Below the pieces are notes generated by a model. The model ran no database searches, was not told where the DNA came from, and worked only from the letters and a program-made list of their open reading frames with translations. Below are positions 9,447 through 22,285 of a stretch of 64,000 bases of DNA, in pieces. Made by a program: the position numbers and the translations under genes. Origin of the DNA: a virus; IMG/VR virus record IMGVR_UViG_3300025914_000009, positions 60,984 through 124,983 of that record; one strand, given 5' to 3'. Position 1 is the first letter of the stretch. Every line of letters starts with the position of its first letter.

Positions 9447-10025
9447 ATGAAGCTATCTGAAAAGGGTAAAGATATCATTGAGGTCTTCATATTTAACATG
9501 AAATGGATCTTGCTTGCTTTCCTTATCAAATTAGGATGGGATCTTATGGTTCTAGCCTATTTTGTATACAGTCAGCCTGAACTCACTCAAGCCCAGCTGA
9601 TGCATTTCATTGAGGATGTGGATATTACAATGATTGCAATCCTTATAAAGATGATGATAGCAGGTGGTTATAACTCTTCTATATCCAAGAAACATGATTT
9701 TGATTCAGAGAATATTAGTAGTGGGCAGTTAAAGATTAAGATGGGTACATCTATCATAGGTATCTCTTCTGTTCATATGCTAAAAGTATTCATGGAGTCA
9801 GAGAATTTGACTGTGGAAGAAATATGGAAGAAAACTATTGTCCACTGTGCTTTTATTGTTGGAGGACTAGCACTATCTTTGATTGATTATTTACACTGTA
9901 AAACAGAATCTCATGAGACAATACCTACTTCTGGCTCTTTGCCTCATGTTAATAACATGGGGATGTCTGGAGAACACTCATTTCCACAGATACAAGAAAG
10001 CAAAGGTTTACACGGAGAGAAATGA
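9447..10025 (+). CDS. YqhA/UPF0114-like membrane protein
   Basis: Four TM segments; LKIKMGTSIIGISSVHML motif. Confidence 0.75.
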   Translation: MKLSEKGKDIIEVFIFNMKWILLAFLIKLGWDLMVLAYFVYSQPELTQAQLMHFIEDVDITMIAILIKMMIAGGYNSSISKKHDFDSENISSGQLKIKMGTSIIGISSVHMLKVFMESENLTVEEIWKKTIVHCAFIVGGLALSLIDYLHCKTESHETIPTSGSLPHVNNMGMSGEHSFPQIQESKGLHGEK

Positions 10026-10341
10026 TGATGGATCAGTCTTTCTTTACTATTACATATTAGCTACCTCCAATAACTATGGAGGGTCAAGCTATTATTATTA
10101 CTCCAGTAGGACTGCTGTTACTACATTCTCCCCTGCGGGCTGGTCAAACTCATCAATTGACCCAGTGAGCAAATTTGAAAACCTCAAGGAGGAGGATAAG
10201 GAGGTTGATGTTGATCTTGATGAAGAAGTTAATGGAGATATGATGGAAGAGATGCAAGACGATCCTGATATTTCAGAGGTAGGAGATGACTCAGCAGGTG
10301 ATTCCTCTGGAGATTCATCAGGGGATGGTTCAGGTGACTAA
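9913..10341 (+). CDS. putative lipoprotein with acidic tail
   Basis: Signal peptide ending ITWGC; D/S/G-rich C-terminus. Confidence 0.65.
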   Translation: MRQYLLLALCLMLITWGCLENTHFHRYKKAKVYTERNDDGSVFLYYYILATSNNYGGSSYYYYSSRTAVTTFSPAGWSNSSIDPVSKFENLKEEDKEVDVDLDEEVNGDMMEEMQDDPDISEVGDDSAGDSSGDSSGDGSGD

Positions 10342-10443
10342 TTTCAAAAGGGCACATACAGCAAACATTATAACAATTCACCTACATTTGAATTAAAAGT
10401 GTGCCCTGTTAAGGTCTGCAACAGCAAATATATCCTTGTGGCA

Positions 10444-10510
10444 CTGGGGGTCAGTGGTGGAAATCCACTCTGTGGGGAAACCCAAAGTAGCTTAGTACTT
10501 AGAGCACCAG
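10444..10510 (+). ncRNA. YrlA-type permuted tRNA mimic (unit B cargo)
   Basis: Order is T arm, GAAA-closed acceptor stem, D arm; closed by ctgg/ccag. Confidence 0.8.
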
Positions 10511-10569
10511 TTGGAGAAAAAATGCAGACCTGTTAAGATACCTAACAGCAAACAATTTGATCCTCTTGT

Positions 10570-10640
10570 GGATTAGTAGCTTAATTGGTAAAGCGCCCAA
10601 TTGATAATTGGGAGATCCTAGTTCAATTCTAGGCTTTAAA
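10570..10640 (+). tRNA. tRNA-Ile(GAT)-like element with degenerate acceptor stem (unit C cargo)
   Basis: D arm gcttaattggtaaagc; anticodon arm cccaa-ttGATaa-ttggg; T arm cctag-ttcaatt-ctagg. Confidence 0.6.
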
Positions 10641-10686
10641 GAGGTATCTGATAAGGGTTCTTACAGCAAATATTAGCAAATGGAAA

Positions 10687-10824
10687 CCTTTGGTCGGAGG
10701 TTCAAATCCTCCCCTCCCAACCAGATTTGGTGTCACCCTAAGGTGTTCAGGACAGCCAAATCTGGTGACTAATCAACCTGACCATATCTGGTTGGGAGGT
10801 AGCTCAGTCTGGTTAGAGCAGAGG
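10687..10824 (+). ncRNA. permuted tRNA mimic with encoded ACCA (unit D cargo)
   Basis: 3' half (T arm + cctcccaACCA, 10696-10723) precedes 5' half (tgggagg + D arm, 10793-10820). Confidence 0.8.
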
Positions 10825-11371
10825 ATGCAACAAAAGAACCCTGATAAGGAGACTTACAGCAAAACAACTCAACTTTCAACCGTTTATTTGAAATAGAGAG
10901 TCTCCTGATAAAGTGCCACACAGCAAATATTAATTCTTTTTCAACAAAGACCGCCCCTGGATGGGAGGAAGCTAAAGAGGTTCGATTCCTCAGGCACTTG
11001 ATAAGGTGAGCAGCAGCATTTAACTAAATAATGGCCCTAAGGTTGGGAAAACTGAAACAGTCATACCGATACTCTCATAGGTTAATACGAAAAGAGTAGT
11101 GTCAAAGGCCCCAAGGGGTACTGGCGGCTATACAAAGAATATGCTCATCTGATAAGGTCACATACAGCAAAAAGCTAAAAGCAATCATCTTGTAAATGAT
11201 AAAAACTGTGACCTGATAAGTAGAGTCTGAAAACCTAAAACATTAATTACGTACCCCCACTACAGGTTGGACTATTTCTATTATCCTACGCCAAGTTCAT
11301 TGACATATGGTTGGTGAATTATCTCCTGTTTGATTTGATAGTAGTGGTGGTATGTCTAAAACCACATTAAC

Positions 11372-11749
11372 ATGACCCCTGAACAGGTAAGAGATCTATG
11401 TATCAATATAGACATGAAATGTCTTGGTAATGATTCGTTCTACCTAAGGATAGAAAGGGATAATGAGCAACCTGTCGATGGGAGAGTCTTTATTCAGGTT
11501 AATTACAGTGCTCCTTGCATAAAGACTGGTGAGTTGAGACAATGGAGTGGTAGAAAGTGGTATCTTTCCAGACACATGACTCAAGATGAAGTGATTAAGA
11601 CAGCATTTGCTGCTTTCAAGGCTGCAGTAGAACATGAGATTCTGGAAGGGTTTAGCGTAGGGGGAAAATTACTATTCAATCCTCATGTTGACTTTACAGA
11701 ATTATTATCTATCTCCCAGAGGGAGGTAAAAAGAACAGAACAAACTTAA
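11372..11749 (+). CDS. conserved phage hypothetical protein
   Basis: W.GRKWYLS.HMT..E...TAF...EHE..E.F...FNPH. Confidence 0.8.
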   Translation: MTPEQVRDLCINIDMKCLGNDSFYLRIERDNEQPVDGRVFIQVNYSAPCIKTGELRQWSGRKWYLSRHMTQDEVIKTAFAAFKAAVEHEILEGFSVGGKLLFNPHVDFTELLSISQREVKRTEQT

Positions 11750-11759
11750 AGATTTACTT

Positions 11760-12251
11760 ATGAAGCCGATGGTTATTACAGAAGACTTGGCAACAATTGG
11801 AATGAGAGTAATGAGAGGCCCTAGCTGGGCGTGAGGGGATCAGGATGGAGGGATAGGCGGTAAAGGAACCATTACTAAATTACTACAAAATGGTTGGGTA
11901 ATGGTAAAGTGGGATAATAGCACCTCTGATGCTCTATATAGAGTAGGACATGGTGGTGATTATGATCTTGTGATGTATGATCCCTTTACTAGCACTGGGA
12001 TTAATCTCGCAAACCCTTATTCCAAAAGAGTTAGCCAAGCAAACCAAGCTCTACAAAGCTTGTCGGAAAGTATTAAGAAAACCACTTCTTTAACAGAAAA
12101 ATCAAATACAAAACATGGAAACACAAACACAGGATCAGGCAGCAACAGACCAAACCCCATTAAAGTACGCCGCCCTATTAGCACAATCGAAGGATCAAAA
12201 AGACGAAGCAGAGCGCCAATTAAATGTGGAAGAGGCTCAGCAAGATCTTGA
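11760..12251 (+). pseudogene. MIB/HERC2-domain gene interrupted by in-frame TGA (11832-11834)
   Basis: GMRVMRGPSWA*GDQDGG...GTI...VKWD...YRVG..GDYDL matches the MIB/HERC2 pattern RGPDWxWGxQDGG. Confidence 0.75.
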
Positions 12252-14507: not shown

Positions 14508-14942
14508 AAGATGTCAGGTAGTTAATTAAATCCATAGGTCGCAGGTTTGAATCCTGTCTCCGCCTCTGTTCCGTAGCATTTTTTGTTTAAACGGCTGGTG
14601 TTTCTACATTAGCCTCATTTTAAACCAAATACTCATCATATGGCAGGAAAAGCTGGTGGTAAAGGTGGCAGAAAGATCGGAAGAAACAAGCGTAGAAATG
14701 AAAGAAAAGGTAGTCCAATCTCCCTTTTTGTTAGAGGAAAGATCACTGCGCACAAGTATTGGGAATTAACTGGGTTGTCTTCTCGTATTAAGCAGAGAGA
14801 AGCTGCCTAAAGTATCTATTGTCCAATAATAGACAAGTCCAGAGAACTGAGTTTCTACTCCCTTCTCTGGCATTCAAGGCGGAGTAGTTCAGTTGACAGA
14901 ACAATGGAATAATATTAGCTTAAGGCTACTTGAAAACATCTT
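14508..14942 (+). ncRNA. circularly permuted tRNA-like RNA enclosing an ORF
   Basis: 3' half at 14531-14565, 5' half at 14878-14908; perfect ggcggag/ctccgcc and atgga/tccat; outer helix 14508-14521/14926-14942. Confidence 0.75.
14640..14810 (+). CDS. 56-aa Gly/Lys/Arg-rich basic protein
   Basis: Read manually: MAGKAGGKGGRKIGRNKRRNERKGSPISLFVRGKITAHKYWELTGLSSRIKQREAA. Confidence 0.7.
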   Translation: MAGKAGGKGGRKIGRNKRRNERKGSPISLFVRGKITAHKYWELTGLSSRIKQREAA

Positions 14943-15025: not shown

Positions 15026-15119
15026 GGCGAAGTATGCAAATTGGTAAAGCAGTCCTCGTTGAGAGGATGGGACTAAATTCTGGGTAATGTCCATGGTAGT
15101 TCGAATCTATCCCTCGCCA
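15026..15119 (+). tRNA. class II (Leu/Ser-like) tRNA with aberrant anticodon arm
   Basis: ggcgaag/cctcgcc acceptor, Leu-type D loop, long variable arm, GTTCGAAT; anticodon loop non-canonical. Confidence 0.55.
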
Positions 15120-15132
15120 CTAAAATTCTTTT

Positions 15133-20212: not shown

Positions 20213-20270
20213 AGGGGGATAGCTCAGTGGTAGAGCATTCTTGTCGGAAGTTCGATTCTTCCTCCCCCTA
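20213..20270 (+). ncRNA. anticodon-less mini-tRNA (58 nt)
   Basis: aggggga/tccccct, D arm gctc-agtggta-gagc, 9-nt linker, T arm ggaag-ttcgatt-cttcc. Confidence 0.75.
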
Positions 20271-20272
20271 CA

Positions 20273-22285
20273 ATGGATGTAGAAATCTATGATATAGAAT
20301 GTTTAGCAGGAATGTTCCTGTATTGTGGGTTTAATCCCACAACTGAAACATGGGTAGAATTTGAGATTTCGGAGTACAGAAATGATCTTTTTGCGCTCTC
20401 AAAGCATCTACAGTCCCTAAGGGGTGTGTATGGCATATCCTATAATGGATTAAGCTATGATTGTCAGGTGCTGCAGTTTATTATGGATAATCATCAGAGA
20501 TGGATTGACTATGATAATATTAGAACCTTGAACATTATTAAAAAGTTCTCCAACAAGATTATTGACGATCAGAAGTATGATCTGTTTCCTCCCTATAGAG
20601 AAGAGGATATAGACAATACTCAGATAGATCTGCTAAAGATCCACCACTTCGACAATGAGAATAAGAGAACATCTTTGAAATGGCTAGAGTTCTCTATGGA
20701 CTTCTACAACGTGGAAGAGATGCCTTATCATCACACTCAGGAGAAATTCACTCCTGATGAGATACAGGAGATTAAGGATTATTGTAGAAATGACGTAGAG
20801 GCTACTTATGAATTTTGGAAGTACACCATTGGGGAAATTGAACATGACGAGTATAAAGGCAAGAACAAAGTACAGGACAGGCTTGATCTGATTGAGGAGA
20901 TGAAATTTCCTACCAAAGCTCTCTCATGGAGTGACGTTAAGATTGGTGATGAGATTAACAAGAAAGTGTATTGTGAGCTTACTAGCTTGACTACCAGACA
21001 GTTGTATGATCTTAAAAAGAAAAGGAAACCTACGAAGAGGTTCAATTATGGAGATTGTATACCAGATTATGTTACCTTTAGAACTAAACCCTTTCAGGAG
21101 TTCTTTGAGAAGATGAAAAAGGTGAGGGTAAATCTGGCTAAAAAAGAGGAATACCCTTTCAGTATCAATGGGTTACATCTGCTCATTGCTAAAGGAGGAA
21201 TCCATTCCAGCGAAAAGAATAGGATAGTAATACCCAAATGGAATGAGATTCTGATGGATGCAGATATTGGTTCTCAATACCCCTGGTCTATCATTAAGAG
21301 AAAGTTATTTCCTTCCCATTTGAGCACAGCATGGCTGGTAGGCTATGAGAGTACTTTTAAAAAGAGGATCAGCTATAAGAAGCTGGCTCAGAACCCAGAC
21401 ATTCCTAAGAGGGATAAAAGGAAATATAAAGGGCTCAGTGAGATGCTAAAGTTAGCCCTAAATGGAGGAGGTTTTGGTAAGACTAATGAGAAGAACTCAT
21501 GGCAGTACGATCCTTTCGTGCAATTTAGCTGTACCATAGGTAATCAGTTTGAGATCCTAATGCTTATTGAAGATCTGCTAATAGCTGGTATTCAGACTAT
21601 TAGTGCTAATACTGATGGTATAGTATGTTTATTTGACAAGAGTTTGGAAGAGACTTACTATAATACCTGCTACGCATGGGAAAAGAAGGTAGGAAACAAT
21701 GAACAGGGTAAGCTGGAGTATACTCAGTACAGTAAAATGATTCAGGCTACTGTGAATGACTATCTGGCTATAAAGCTTGATGGAGAGGTGAAGAAGAAAG
21801 GTGACTTCCTTACCAGTTTTCCGGTAGAGAAGAATAAGAGTAGAAAGATTATCAATCTCGCACTGGAGAAGTGGTTTGTTAATGGTATTAGAGCAGGCAT
21901 TACTATCAGACAGCATTTAAATATCTTTGATTTCTGTATAGGAGTAAAGGCTTCTAAACAATTCCATTATGAAACTATTGATAAAGAGGGGCAGAAAGAA
22001 GTGTTTGACAGAATGATAAGGTATTATGTGTCTACAGATGGAAAGAAGCTACTAAAGATCAAGAATGAGAACTCAGAAGCTGATGGTAATGATGTAACAC
22101 AATGTGAAGCAGGAGAGTGGAAGTGTACAGTGATAAACAAGGTAGATACCAATAAGCCTATAGCAGAGTATAATATCAACTATGATTATTATATAAACAA
22201 GGCTGAAGAGCGTATCTATGCAATTGAAAAAGGAAGGAAAAGAAAAGGTGGAAGACCAGATCCTAACCAAACAACATTATTTTGA
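20273..22285 (+). CDS. polB: family B DNA polymerase
   Basis: Exonuclease YDIE, YN...YD, YC.ND; polymerase DIGSQYP, K...N...GK, NTDG. Confidence 0.92.
   Translation: MDVEIYDIECLAGMFLYCGFNPTTETWVEFEISEYRNDLFALSKHLQSLRGVYGISYNGLSYDCQVLQFIMDNHQRWIDYDNIRTLNIIKKFSNKIIDDQKYDLFPPYREEDIDNTQIDLLKIHHFDNENKRTSLKWLEFSMDFYNVEEMPYHHTQEKFTPDEIQEIKDYCRNDVEATYEFWKYTIGEIEHDEYKGKNKVQDRLDLIEEMKFPTKALSWSDVKIGDEINKKVYCELTSLTTRQLYDLKKKRKPTKRFNYGDCIPDYVTFRTKPFQEFFEKMKKVRVNLAKKEEYPFSINGLHLLIAKGGIHSSEKNRIVIPKWNEILMDADIGSQYPWSIIKRKLFPSHLSTAWLVGYESTFKKRISYKKLAQNPDIPKRDKRKYKGLSEMLKLALNGGGFGKTNEKNSWQYDPFVQFSCTIGNQFEILMLIEDLLIAGIQTISANTDGIVCLFDKSLEETYYNTCYAWEKKVGNNEQGKLEYTQYSKMIQATVNDYLAIKLDGEVKKKGDFLTSFPVEKNKSRKIINLALEKWFVNGIRAGITIRQHLNIFDFCIGVKASKQFHYETIDKEGQKEVFDRMIRYYVSTDGKKLLKIKNENSEADGNDVTQCEAGEWKCTVINKVDTNKPIAEYNINYDYYINKAEERIYAIEKGRKRKGGRPDPNQTTLF

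Follow-up and report, generated by a model that had tools for sequence, protein, structure and literature searches.

A circularly permuted tRNA look-alike in a phage array of handle-bearing small RNAs beside a gene for a protein of predicted Ro60-like fold

YrlA (Y RNA-like A; Rfam RF02553) of bacteria and mycobacteriophages is a partner of Ro60/Rsr and is built from a closing stem that carries the protein-binding module, followed by an anticodon-stem analogue, a T arm, an acceptor-like hairpin, and a D arm. Its Ro60-binding stem bears the conserved motif GNCGAAN0-1G, and the Mycobacterium smegmatis member, which has a 7-bp acceptor stem, is cut by RNase P in vitro and in vivo, after which its 5' fragment gains CA to give a CCA end; the 7-bp acceptor stem was named as the key RNase P determinant (PMC4201824). 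YrlA is encoded beside a TROVE-domain Ro60 ortholog and is bound by Ro60, and its T and D loops are modified by TruB and DusA. An origin of YrlA from tandem tRNA genes, by way of a dimeric pre-tRNA, has been proposed (10.1101/312249). Ro60/Rsr-Y RNA particles have also been described or suggested in phages, namely Thermus phage phiLo Ro60 with Yrl1/Yrl2 (PMC12135203) and CKA15_055 of a P100-like Listeria phage, which was suggested to be an Rsr with nearby Y RNAs (PMC12282133). In two-piece (circularly permuted) tmRNA genes, the T arm, the acceptor 3' strand, and CCA come first, followed by an intervening segment and the acceptor 5' strand. In the permuted tRNA genes of Cyanidioschyzon merolae and some archaea, the 3' half precedes the 5' half and the acceptor is initially closed by a linker (10.1101/312249), but these genes mature into real tRNAs with an anticodon loop by way of a splicing endonuclease and a circular intermediate. 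Dictyostelium Class I RNAs (RF01414; PMC7919456) are RNAs of 42-65 nt from single genes with a DUSE promoter, in which a short stem with a conserved first G joins the 5' and 3' ends, an adjacent motif CCUUACAGCAA and the ends AAG ... CUGU are conserved, and the interior is variable. Four Class I RNA-binding proteins are reportedly listed by Avesson 2011, and the only one named in Kjellin 2021 is the RRM protein Rnp1A.

Here, a 64,000-nt stretch of the viral record IMGVR_UViG_3300025914_000009 (positions 60,984 to 124,983; hereafter the window) was analyzed. A first-pass annotation had described, at 10655-10841, a permuted tRNA in which a 3' half ending in ACCA precedes a structured spacer of about 70 nt and then the 5' half, with the anticodon loop replaced by a handle. 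It had inferred that RNase P plus 3' trimming could excise the spacer, as in two-piece tmRNAs, to give a chargeable acceptor end tethered to a Ro-like protein. The described arrangement was confirmed, as every named element was found on the plus strand within 10655-10848 (unit D). The interpretation, in contrast, was only partly supported.

Table 1. Positions of the Ro-like gene, the RNA array, and the elements of unit D in the window.
Feature	Position	Strand	Composition	Support
Gene for a 568-aa protein of predicted Ro60 fold (DUF2828/DUF7788)	7548-9254	+	HEAT-like helical ring plus vWA domain with a DxSxS motif; presumed binder of the handle	Pfam DUF7788 40.1 bits (cut-off 27.1); DUF2828 21.8 bits (below its cut-off of 29); phrog_850 'RNA-binding protein', E 1.6e-28
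Solitary handle unit directly after the stop codon of the Ro-like gene	9255-9346	+	Stem GGGGCAGC/GCTGTCCC plus ACAGCAAA, without the UGAUAAG tail	
Array of eight contiguous units, A-H	10350-11220	+	AAG/G-stem (6-8 bp)-ACAGCAAA-cargo-stem-C/UGAUAAG; joined by UGAUAAG-type linkers; fixed 7 nt between CTGWTAAG and ACAGCAAA	ACAGCAAA occurs 11 times in the window against 2.84 expected; 0 of 100 shuffles reach 11
Unit B	10414-10537	+	Second permuted tRNA mimic, acceptor stem closed by a GAAA tetraloop	R2 66.4 bits, E 7.1e-11; R1 72.7 bits
Unit C	10538-10655	+	tRNA-like cargo in normal order (D arm, anticodon arm with loop UUGAUAA, T arm); the handle replaces most of the acceptor stem	Rfam tRNA 52.6 bits, model positions 6-65 of 71
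Unit D, handle stem, 5' strand	10655-10662	+	GGGTTCTT	Pairs with 10834-10841; the handle stem covaries in 25 aligned units
Unit D, handle motif	10663-10670	+	ACAGCAAA	In 116 units placed in register by CAGCA (100% by construction), the preceding A is present in 91% and the following A in 93%
Unit D, anticodon-stem analogue (3'-side strand) and variable-loop analogue	10688-10695	+	CUUU (pairs with 10820-10823), then GGUC	YrlA alignment and MFE fold
Unit D, T arm	10696-10712	+	GGAGG-UUCAAAU-CCUCC	
Unit D, acceptor stem, 3' strand	10713-10719	+	CCUCCCA	7 of 7 Watson-Crick pairs with 10793-10799; acceptor pairs covary
Unit D, ACCA	10720-10723	+	tRNA positions 73-76	Predicted always paired, with 10789-10792 or alternatively with 10763-10766
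Unit D, structured insert (spacer)	10724-10792	+	69 nt, closes the acceptor helix; direct repeat CCAAATCTGGT / CCATATCTGGT, either copy of which can pair with ACCAGATTTGG	Only 5 of 87 related units have inserts longer than 30 nt
Unit D, acceptor stem, 5' strand	10793-10799	+	UGGGAGG	Expected RNase P site, if the unit is cut, 10792/10793, inferred by analogy to M. smegmatis YrlA
Unit D, U8-A9 analogue	10800-10801	+	TA in the DNA	
Unit D, D arm	10802-10819	+	GCTC-AGTCTGGTTA-GAGC (RNA GCUC-AGUCUGGUUA-GAGC)	
Unit D, anticodon-stem analogue, second strand	10820-10823	+	AGAG	
Unit D, handle stem, 3' strand	10834-10841	+	AAGAACCC	
Unit D, linker leading into unit E	10841-10848	+	CTGATAAG (UGAUAAG in the RNA)	

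The significance of unit D was examined using covariance models and folding. The Rfam YrlA model matched 10688-10827 at 31.9 bits (E 1.5e-4 in an 1801-nt search), which is below its gathering score of 69, and aligned over model positions 23-89 in the order anticodon-stem strand, T arm, acceptor-like hairpin, D arm, and anticodon-stem strand; relatives scored 24.6-37.9 bits. A model built only from 22 units of other phages, with no window sequence (R2), scored 10656-10848 at 89.1 bits (E 2.5e-15 over the whole window). Compensatory changes were found at 22 of 23 predicted pairs in 25 aligned units, covering the handle stem, T arm, acceptor, and D arm. The MFE of the unit was -72.4 kcal/mol (z = -4.37), and 0 of 200 shuffles folded as well. 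The acceptor helix was also found to continue through ACCA, a point absent from the first-pass annotation, since arms 10713-10731 and 10781-10799 are 19 nt long and 95% complementary, indicating that the 'end' is predicted to lie inside a duplex in the primary transcript. The stretch between the acceptor strands is 73 nt, where the YrlA model has 2 nt.

No tRNA was called at 10655-10848 by ARAGORN or Rfam tRNA, and no tmRNA was reported by ARAGORN. For two-piece tmRNA (RF04321 / RF00023), the tmRNA_permuted model gave 12.5 bits (E 8.5) against a gathering score of 47, and an 18.2-bit tmRNA hit covered the T arm and ACCA only. The unit shares with two-piece tmRNA genes an acceptor 3' piece ending in CCA upstream of the acceptor 5' piece; however, it has a D arm, no tag reading frame, no pseudoknots, and no G3:U70 alanine identity pair, as pair 3-70 is G10795-C10717. 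The comparison with two-piece tmRNA is an analogy only.

Next, the handle was compared with known motifs. In the phage units, the stem is flanked by conserved single-stranded sequence, with UAAG on the 5' side, ACAGCAAA just inside the stem, and YUGAUAAR after it. The Ro60-binding motif of bacterial Y RNAs is lacking, as no CGAA was found in 10655-10695 or 10820-10848, and thus binding cannot be assumed from Ro60. The handle, but not the cargo, resembles Dictyostelium Class I RNA: unit D reads UAAG/GGGUUCUU-ACAGCAAA ... AAGAACCC/UGAUAAG, the phage counterpart of the adjacent motif is UUACAGCAAA, 9 to 10 of the 11 motif bases are shared, and the ends are UAAG ... CUGA, or CUGU in Listeria phage P100. 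Phage units hit RF01414 at 21.9-39.3 bits, all below the gathering score of 41.5; window units A, E, and H scored 21.9-24.7 bits, the best score was obtained in Leptolyngbya phage Lbo-JY46, and unit D, at about 190 nt and as one of several tandem units, was not hit. The cargoes are varied tRNA pieces, with unit F carrying a T arm only, and many units have short cargoes with no tRNA features. The start of the Ro-like gene itself mimics the 5' half of the handle (AUAAG-AUGUUUG-ACAGCAAA). A scan of 7300-11600 found 12 promoter-like and 2 terminator-like sites against 12.9 and 2.9 in shuffles, which is at chance level; a hairpin plus T-run at about 9399-9436 has a 13-nt loop and was not called. 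In viral contigs, the handle pattern gave 83 stretches, of which only 7 of 80 examined had two or more matches, single matches being about what chance is estimated to give for 15.5 specified bases, and in genome contigs, it gave 120 stretches, the 80 examined all being single matches at or below the estimate for chance, so that no host information was obtained.

The predicted structure of the 568-aa protein (AF2 model, pLDDT 86, pTM 0.85) was searched with Foldseek against the PDB. As a result, the top 10 hits were all Ro60/TROVE (E 3.1e-7 to 9.3e-5, best 9kop) over 548-627 aligned columns, with moderate TM-scores of 0.41-0.56, consistent with a helical-repeat ring followed by a vWA domain with a MIDAS motif on the predicted model only. 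The DxSxS motif (D365-T-S367-G-S369) was invariant in 40 sequences. At the sequence level, however, no Pfam TROVE (PF05731) hit was listed at E up to 10, and phmmer and profile searches of the PDB gave only weak LIMP-2 and other hits (E >= 0.011), with no Ro60. In an independent published HHpred analysis, the P100-like homolog CKA15_055 best matched Deinococcus radiodurans Rsr (PMC12282133); CKA15_055 occupies the gp165 position in a stretch 97.4% identical to P100.

DNA similarity search of 7000-12000 against GenBank phages gave no match, and a search for related loci with the single protein found nothing, so that an alignment was needed. Among the loci recovered, 55 of 80 IMG/VR loci and 36 of the 72 metagenome loci searched carried at least one model hit, with 139 hits downstream and 43 upstream at a median of 551 nt from the gene end. 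All 133 hits of the model designated R1, in 81 sources, lay on the strand of the protein gene. On the other hand, 25 of the 80 IMG/VR loci had no R1 hit, 20 of them with at least 1500 nt of downstream flank. The handle units persist beside homologs that are only 45.7% identical (Lbo-JY46, 5 units directly after the gene, with the array at PP438436 6925-7280) and 24.7% identical (P100, 3 units directly before gp165). In P100, the neighborhood also holds RtcB, as in the Salmonella rsr-yrlBA-rtcBA operon (see also PMC7790460). The very abundant CKA15_059-061 transcripts, proposed as Y RNAs in PMC12282133, were considered as possible evidence for expression of handle RNAs, but this was rejected because they map to the position of a ROOL RNA match in P100, whereas the handle units lie in the unannotated 396-nt gap between CKA15_056 and CKA15_055. 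Time-resolved RNA-seq of Listeria phage CKA15 has been published (PMC12282133). A search for sequencing runs found two, both of DNA from rhizosphere metagenomes and both possible sources of the contig, and none of RNA.

The acceptor ends were then compared across the family. At least 6 of 7 acceptor pairs form in 101 of 184 model hits. Among 87 related units, C74 is kept in 49 of 60 with 9-30-nt linkers but in 5 of 22 closed-loop units (Fisher p = 1.4e-6, or 1.9e-5 after collapsing by acceptor strand). Those linkers are 82% A+T, and positions 73-76 of these units are predicted to be unpaired (median P(unpaired) 0.755; 49 of 60 exceed 0.5). One example of a unit with a 9-30-nt linker is L085:5931-6077. 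The same N73-C74 signature is found in all 23 tRNA genes of this phage, 21 of which lack CA. Full CCA is encoded in only 10 of 87 units; given C74, CA follows in 10 of 54 against about 6% expected (p about 1e-3), although 7 of the 10 come from three loci that share unit types (L112, L117, and L161) and are not independent. A tRNA search in the three fragmentary records of these loci, intended to compare tRNA 3' ends with their NCCA units, found only 1 tRNA and was uninformative. In unit D itself, ACCA and the last 7 leader bases have a predicted P(unpaired) of 0.00. An alternative fold, a hairpin of 10720-30 with 10756-66, would free a 26-nt leader, but it is 6.1 kcal/mol worse and still pairs ACCA. 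The closest ortholog, in locus L084, has ACAA at this position and an unrelated 87-nt insert.

In summary, unit D appears to be one module of a phage-encoded array of Y-RNA-like small RNAs, an explanation held with moderate confidence. In this view, the handle would be the binding site of the Ro60-fold DUF2828/DUF7788 protein encoded just upstream, and the array would be cut into units at the UGAUAAG linkers. The cargo is a YrlA-type circularly permuted tRNA mimic with the handle standing where the anticodon loop would be; it should therefore present a tRNA elbow and acceptor helix on the Ro-like particle, where it could engage host tRNA-binding factors. As transcribed, the acceptor helix would be closed and extended to about 19 bp by the lineage-specific insert that buries ACCA, and the closed rod is thought to be the default form. 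This last reading rests on thermodynamic prediction alone, and the C74 and A/T-linker signature favors an opened, two-piece form for most relatives. Opening by RNase P plus 3' trimming and CCA repair is plausible for the family and judged likely for the units with 9-30-nt linkers, whereas for unit D it is possible but not required. The analysis itself establishes the sequence anatomy, the covariation, the synteny, and the predicted fold; that the protein binds the handle, that the RNAs are processed at the linkers, and what they do are inferences, with no experiment or RNA read showing that any of these RNAs is made, cut, or bound.

The processing model of the first-pass annotation, in which RNase P cuts unit D at 10792/10793, the 3' side is trimmed back to the encoded ACCA, the spacer is lost, and a two-piece, CCA-ended and possibly aminoacylated molecule remains tethered to the protein through the handle, is considered unlikely for unit D, though it is the strongest of the alternatives. 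It draws on the M. smegmatis precedent, the 7-bp acceptor stem, and the end signature of the wider family, but the predicted pairing of ACCA and the leader, the ACAA of the ortholog, and the non-independence of most NCCA cases weigh against it, and the C74 signature could be a relic of origin from tandem tRNA genes. No CCA-adding enzyme, RtcB, or RNA ligase encoded by the phage was found, so every step would depend on the host. Charging is unsupported, as there is no anticodon, no G3:U70, and no long variable arm.

It is also conceivable, but improbable, that the array works independently of the Ro-like protein, with the handle only a processing or stability signal and the units acting as free tRNA-shaped decoys or sponges for host tRNA-targeting defenses or tRNA enzymes. 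The varied tRNA-derived cargoes, the heavy investment of the phage in tRNA, and the lack of resemblance between the handle and the known Ro60 site would fit this view; however, the protein and handle RNAs stay linked and co-oriented from 75% down to 24.7% protein identity, a handle-like sequence overlaps the protein's own start codon, and many cargoes lack tRNA features. A permuted precursor of a real tRNA matured through a circular intermediate, or a decaying, functionless relic of tandem tRNA genes, is a remote possibility. The order of the halves and the N73-C74 end are those of a tRNA-tRNA junction, but there is no anticodon loop, and the ends are joined by an 8-bp stem with asymmetric internal loops of 17 nt (10671-10687) and 10 nt (10824-10833; 24 and 9 nt if the ACAGCAAA motif and the optional C10687-G10824 pair are counted) without a bulge-helix-bulge motif. 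The strong covariation and conservation of the whole unit across phages argue against decay.

A tRNA-mimicking Y RNA beside a Ro-shaped protein is already known, including RNase P opening and CCA addition in one mycobacterial case, and thus the central idea of the first-pass annotation is not new in principle. What appears new is that the partner belongs to a large, uncharacterized protein family (2014 proteins with E <= 1e-3 among the 8000 candidates scored) with the Ro60 fold only at the structural level; that the RNAs use a different, sharply conserved handle that is absent from Rfam 15 at gathering level and is reused on up to eight tandem units with swappable cargo; that a subclass of units keeps tRNA-gene-like 3' ends, which predicts systematic opening into two-piece molecules; and that the handle is close to that of Dictyostelium Class I RNAs. 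Literature searches on DUF2828 and its Pfam/InterPro identifiers, on YrlA, Ro60/TROVE, Y RNAs, and Ro-like proteins in phages, and on permuted tRNAs in phages found no description of this system, although Supplemental Tables S1/S2 of PMC4201824 list YrlA candidates in phages and may bear on whether a member was already listed. The system is present in cultured phages (Lbo-JY46, which infects Leptolyngbya boryana, and P100/A511-type Listeria phages), which makes these points directly testable.

A more far-reaching reading, which is doubtful on present evidence but would be of high interest if true, is that DUF2828/DUF7788 proteins and 'stem + ACAGCAA' handle RNAs form a second, previously unrecognized lineage of Ro/Y-RNA-like particles. 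This lineage would span tailed phages of cyanobacteria, Firmicutes, and many uncultured hosts and, through the eukaryotic DUF2828 proteins, would also reach the dictyostelid Class I RNAs, whose function and main partner have been open since 2004. In phages, the handle would serve as a universal adaptor that loads interchangeable cargoes onto the particle, including split tRNA mimics that would be opened by RNase P, completed to CCA by the host enzyme, and perhaps charged.

To verify the permuted tRNA-like structure that the first-pass annotation had described in unit D, the T arm, the acceptor strands, ACCA, the spacer and the D arm were read directly from the sequence, and every listed element was found, so that the observation itself was confirmed. 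The whole unit is closed by an 8-bp stem, with ACAGCAAA just inside the stem and CTGATAAG following it. ARAGORN and the Rfam tRNA model did not call the unit, whereas the Rfam YrlA model aligned to it at 31.9 bits (E 1.5e-4 in an 1801-nt search), which is below its gathering score of 69, with a 74-nt insertion where the model has 2 nt. The unit folded far better than shuffled sequences (-72.4 kcal/mol, z -4.37, 0 of 200). As a control against circularity, a covariance model (R2) was built from 22 units of other phages only, and it scored unit D at 89.1 bits with E 2.5e-15 across the 64-kb window.

Coordinates of the features described in the text (window positions unless another record is named)
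Feature	Position	Sequence or remark
GIY-YIG / NUMOD homing-endonuclease-like gene	6924-7499 (-)	opposite strand, immediately upstream of the Ro-like gene
Second ACAGCAAA near the gene start	7520	
Start region of the Ro-like gene	7543-7562	AAG-ATGTTTG-ACAGCAAA
ORF of the Ro-like protein	7548-9254	568 aa
Solitary ninth unit	9255-9346	follows the stop codon of the Ro-like gene
Hairpin plus T-run	about 9399-9436	follows the solitary unit
Two ORFs between the Ro-like gene and the array	9411-10341	a UPF0114 membrane-protein-like ORF and an overlapping 152-aa acidic ORF with Gly/Asp/Ser repeats
12-nt period in the acidic ORF	10288-10337	
Array of eight contiguous units	10350-11220	
Anticodon loop of unit C	10603-10609	UUGAUAA
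Inter-unit linker heptamer	10648-10654 and all linkers	CUGAUAA
Unit D, closing stem, 5' strand	10655-10662	GGGTTCTT
Unit D, handle motif	10663-10670	ACAGCAAA
Unit D, Rfam YrlA alignment	10688-10827	
Unit D, T arm	10696-10712	GGAGG-TTCAAAT-CCTCC
Unit D, acceptor 3' strand	10713-10719	CCTCCCA
Unit D, arms of the extended acceptor helix	10713-10731 and 10781-10799	19 nt, one mismatch
Unit D, ACCA	10720-10723	
Unit D, spacer	10724-10792	69 nt
Unit D, acceptor 5' strand	10793-10799	TGGGAGG, followed by TA
Unit D, D arm	10802-10819	GCTC-AGTCTGGTTA-GAGC
Unit D, closing stem, 3' strand	10834-10841	AAGAACCC
Unit D, sequence after the stem	10841-10848	CTGATAAG
Unit F-type cargo	10912-11006; L084:6877-6974; L244:5797-5894; L091:6649-6745; L123:6182-6277	L numbers denote related phage loci
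Weak R2 hit	14802-14937	22 bits, E 0.035; just upstream of tRNA-Gln(UUG)
tRNA-Gln(UUG), ARAGORN	15026-15120	95 nt, long extra arm
tRNA-like element with a 36-nt insert in the anticodon loop	19852-19952 (+)	Rfam tRNA 45.1 bits
tRNA-like element with 4 nt in place of the whole anticodon arm	20213-20270 (+)	49.7 bits
PolB gene	20273-22285	
Phage tRNA genes (contig coordinates)	47098-50268, 59591-59664 and 76009-76103	23 genes in the whole contig
tmRNA genes next to handle-unit arrays in two related phage contigs	L139:3508-3802; L028:1-337	64.3 and 52.3 bits, gathering score 47
ROOL RNA match in Listeria phage P100	NC_007610, 1911-2462	86 bits, gathering score 99.1, E 2.1e-16; between tRNA-Pro and gp166
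Corresponding position in phage CKA15	OR088597, 2060-2370	CKA15_059-061

The window is the right-hand half of a 124,983-bp phage contig, which is rated complete by IMG/VR and CheckV and carries 23 tRNA genes and a PolB. Unit D is the fourth of eight contiguous units, each of the form G-stem(6-8 bp)-ACAGCAAA-cargo-stem-C, which are joined by UGAUAAG-type linkers with exactly 7 nt between CTGWTAAG and ACAGCAAA. The motif ACAGCAAA occurs 11 times in the window against 2.84 expected, and 0 of 100 shuffles reached 11. The cargoes differ among the units. Units A, E and H are short hairpins, unit B is a second permuted tRNA mimic closed by a GAAA tetraloop (66.4 bits with R2), unit C is a tRNA-like module in normal order that keeps an anticodon arm (Rfam tRNA 52.6 bits, model positions 6-65), and unit G is a larger fold. 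Unit F is a recurrent cargo type conserved from the window to the Leptolyngbya phage Lbo-JY46, in which a conserved CCUG(G/U)..GG..GG element is followed by a T arm, AAAG(R)GGUUCGAnUCC(Y), without a D arm or acceptor. The linker heptamer has the form of an anticodon loop with anticodon GAU and resembles the anticodon loop of unit C, which may be chance or a trace of the origin of the array from tRNA-Ile-like genes. Elsewhere in the window, two further odd tRNA-like elements flank an 83-aa ORF just upstream of the PolB gene and lack the ACAGCAAA handle, and the long extra arm of the called tRNA-Gln(UUG) is unusual for tRNA-Gln.

Next, the protein encoded upstream of the array was examined. The ORF matched Pfam DUF7788 at 40.1 bits, DUF2828 at 21.8 bits, which is below the cut-off of that family, and PHROG 850, annotated as 'RNA-binding protein'. 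No Pfam TROVE hit was obtained at E up to 10, and neither the sequence nor a 40-sequence profile found Ro60 in the PDB. However, the AlphaFold2 model (pLDDT 86, pTM 0.85) had Ro60/TROVE structures as its ten best Foldseek matches in the PDB, covering 548-627 aligned columns with E 3.1e-7 to 9.3e-5 and TM 0.41-0.56; these included the Thermus phage phiLo Ro60 (9kop, 9l5y), Xenopus and human Ro60, and D. radiodurans Rsr. The vWA MIDAS-type DxSxS motif is invariant in the alignment. Consistent with the predicted fold, an independent published HHpred analysis found D. radiodurans Rsr as the best match of CKA15_055 in Listeria phage CKA15 (PMC12282133), and CKA15_055 occupies the position of P100 gp165 in a stretch 97.4% identical to P100. 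The 'Ro-like protein' of the first-pass annotation is therefore supported at the level of predicted fold, but not of sequence family.

The link between the protein gene and the handle RNAs was then assessed across phages. The protein family is large, as 2014 of the 8000 candidates scored had E <= 1e-3. Using an alignment of 40 members, 80 loci were collected from IMG/VR and 80 from metagenome contigs, of which 8 metagenome loci duplicating IMG/VR contigs were left out. A second covariance model (R1), built from 25 permuted units including those of the window, found 133 matches at E <= 0.01 in 81 sources, all on the strand of the protein gene, and 51 matches at E <= 1e-4 in 73 further sources. 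At least one match was found in 55 of 80 IMG/VR loci and in 36 of the 72 metagenome loci searched; 139 matches were downstream of the gene and 43 upstream, with a median of 551 nt from its end. The remaining 25 IMG/VR loci had no match, although 20 of them have at least 1500 nt of downstream flank. In 25 aligned units, RNAalifold predicted 23 pairs in the handle stem, T arm, acceptor and D arm, and 22 of them showed compensatory double changes. A logo of 116 distinct units, placed in register on the string CAGCA so that those five columns are fixed by construction, gave 5' A-U-A-A-G|R...W-A-C-A-G-C-A-A-A, with the flanking A's at 91% and 93%, and on the 3' side AAA..stem-Y-U-G-A-U-A-A-R, with G at 98% and U at 93%.

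This association persists at great distance. The cultured phage Lbo-JY46 (45.7% protein identity) has five contiguous units directly after the gene in an unannotated gap, and Listeria phage P100 (24.7% identity) has three units of the form G-stem-AACAGCAAU...stem-CUGU directly before gp165. In addition, the start region of the protein gene often mimics the 5' half of the handle. In the window it reads AUAAG-AUGUUUG-ACAGCAAA, with the same 7-nt spacing and overlapping the start codon, and among 101 distinct homolog starts 17 have the exact ACAGCAA within the first 21 nt of the ORF, many starts being preceded by UAAG. This hints at autoregulation, for which the start region may be a site, but none of these results demonstrates binding.

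To determine whether the ACCA is meaningful, the 184 hits of the two R1 searches were taken from the model-fitted alignments, and the 101 hits with at least 6 of 7 acceptor pairs were kept; the 83 hits dropped are mostly short units matched through the handle alone. After removal of duplicates, 87 units remained, which were divided by the length between the acceptor strands. Of 22 units with 8 nt or less, 5 had C at position 74 and none encoded NCCA; of 60 units with 9-30 nt, 49 had C74 and 9 encoded NCCA; and of 5 units with over 30 nt, all 5 had C74 and 1, that of the window, encoded NCCA. The difference in C74 between the first two classes was strong (Fisher p = 1.4e-6; 5 of 22 against 38 of 49 after collapsing by acceptor sequence, p = 1.9e-5). 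The 9-30-nt linkers are 82% A+T, and positions 73-76 in this class were predicted to be mostly unpaired (median 0.755, with 49 of 60 above 0.5). The same signature marks the tRNA genes of this phage, all 23 of which have C at position 74 while only 2 (His and one Met) encode the full CCA. Full CCA was only modestly enriched once C74 was given (10 of 54 against about 6% expected, p about 1e-3), and seven of the ten cases come from three loci that share unit types (L112, L117 and L161).

Unit D itself is atypical, because it is one of only 5 of 87 units with a long insert and its acceptor helix runs on through ACCA. A direct repeat inside the insert (CCAAATCTGGT / CCATATCTGGT) offers a second partner for ACCAGATTTGG. 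In the thermodynamic ensemble, P(unpaired) was 0.00 for each base of ACCA and for the last seven bases before the acceptor 5' strand, and the alternative fold with the local hairpin was 6.1 kcal/mol less stable and still paired ACCA. The closest relative is locus L084, with 70% protein identity, whose fourth unit shares the same handle strand and the same first 26 nt. There the cargo has diverged, with a different acceptor sequence, an unrelated 87-nt insert, and ACAA instead of ACCA. Given the column frequencies of the family (C74 59 of 87, C75 16 of 84, A76 47 of 83), a full CCA is expected in about 1 unit in 12, and thus the ACCA of the window needs no special selection.

The signature of the 9-30-nt linker class is what would be expected if these units were matured like tRNAs, by RNase P at the 5' side, then trimming, and then completion of CCA by the host enzyme. 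No CCA-adding enzyme, RtcB or RNA ligase gene was found in the phage, which therefore relies on host 3'-end repair for its tRNAs. Such maturation also fits the one experimental precedent, M. smegmatis YrlA, which is cut by RNase P and whose 5' fragment carries an added CA (PMC4201824; restated in 10.1101/312249). Alternatively, the signature could be a relic of origin from tandem tRNA genes (10.1101/312249). For unit D, we read the closed, rod-extended form as the default, and opening in vivo appears possible but unlikely. Nothing supports charging, as there is no anticodon, pair 3-70 is G-C, and there is no long variable arm. The interpretation of the first-pass annotation was accordingly borne out only in part: the permuted tRNA reading is right and the tether to a Ro-like protein is in keeping with the predicted fold and the conserved linkage, although binding is inferred, whereas a real, removable and chargeable end is plausible for the family but unsupported for this unit.

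Compared with known families, unit D appears to work like YrlA, by analogy, but it does not reach the YrlA gathering score and lacks the Ro-binding motif, and its neighbouring protein gave no Pfam TROVE hit while having a Ro60-like predicted fold. It is not a tmRNA. The handle is closest to Dictyostelium Class I RNA, which has a short terminal stem with a conserved first G, the adjacent CCUUACAGCAA motif, and conserved ends AAG and CUGU (PMC7919456). Phage units matched Rfam RF01414 three times in the window at 21.9-24.7 bits, nine times in 14 other loci at 27.1-34.1 bits, all nine lying inside or next to the arrays by comparison of coordinates with the R1 and regular-expression hits, and three times in Lbo-JY46 at up to 39.3 bits (E 1.7e-4). 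All these scores are below the gathering score of 41.5; the Class I study used a score of at least 25 plus a stem as its candidate criterion and reported no such RNAs outside Dictyostelia (PMC7919456). The resemblance may reflect either homology or convergence. Apart from tRNA on unit C, no Rfam 15 family reached its gathering score on the units.

No description of this protein-RNA system was found in the literature searches, in which most papers were seen only as listings and abstracts. The CKA15 study proposes that its Rsr-like protein may use nearby Y RNAs (PMC12282133), but the loci to which it points, the three 'small ORFs' CKA15_059-061, coincide with the position of the ROOL match in P100, not with the handle units. 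These ORFs were reported to draw about 67% of phage transcripts at 40 min, and the hyper-abundant RNA of that study is therefore probably ROOL. The P100 RefSeq record also lists its tRNAs on the strand opposite to the Rfam hits.

In summary, the system belongs with Ro/Y RNA pairs but has a different handle and a protein that resembles Ro60 in predicted fold only, and it occurs in cultured phages, where it is open to experiment. The anatomy of the units, their covariation and their linkage to the protein gene were observed in the sequences, whereas transcription, cutting, binding and function are inferred. In the mechanism we propose, the array would be transcribed on the strand of the Ro-like gene and cut at the single-stranded UGAUAAG linkers, and the stem plus ACAGCAAA and its flanks would be bound by the Ro-fold protein, as inferred from synteny, predicted fold and the start-codon mimic. 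The cargo, here an intact tRNA core with U8, A14, G15 with C48, G18-G19 and the T-loop UUCAAAU, positions that serve tertiary pairing in tRNA, would recruit or compete for host tRNA-binding factors by analogy to YrlA. In P100 the gene sits in an island with five tRNAs, a ROOL RNA match, an HD phosphohydrolase and an RtcB ligase, which fits an RNA repair or quality-control role, as for Ro60 with RtcB in enterobacteria.
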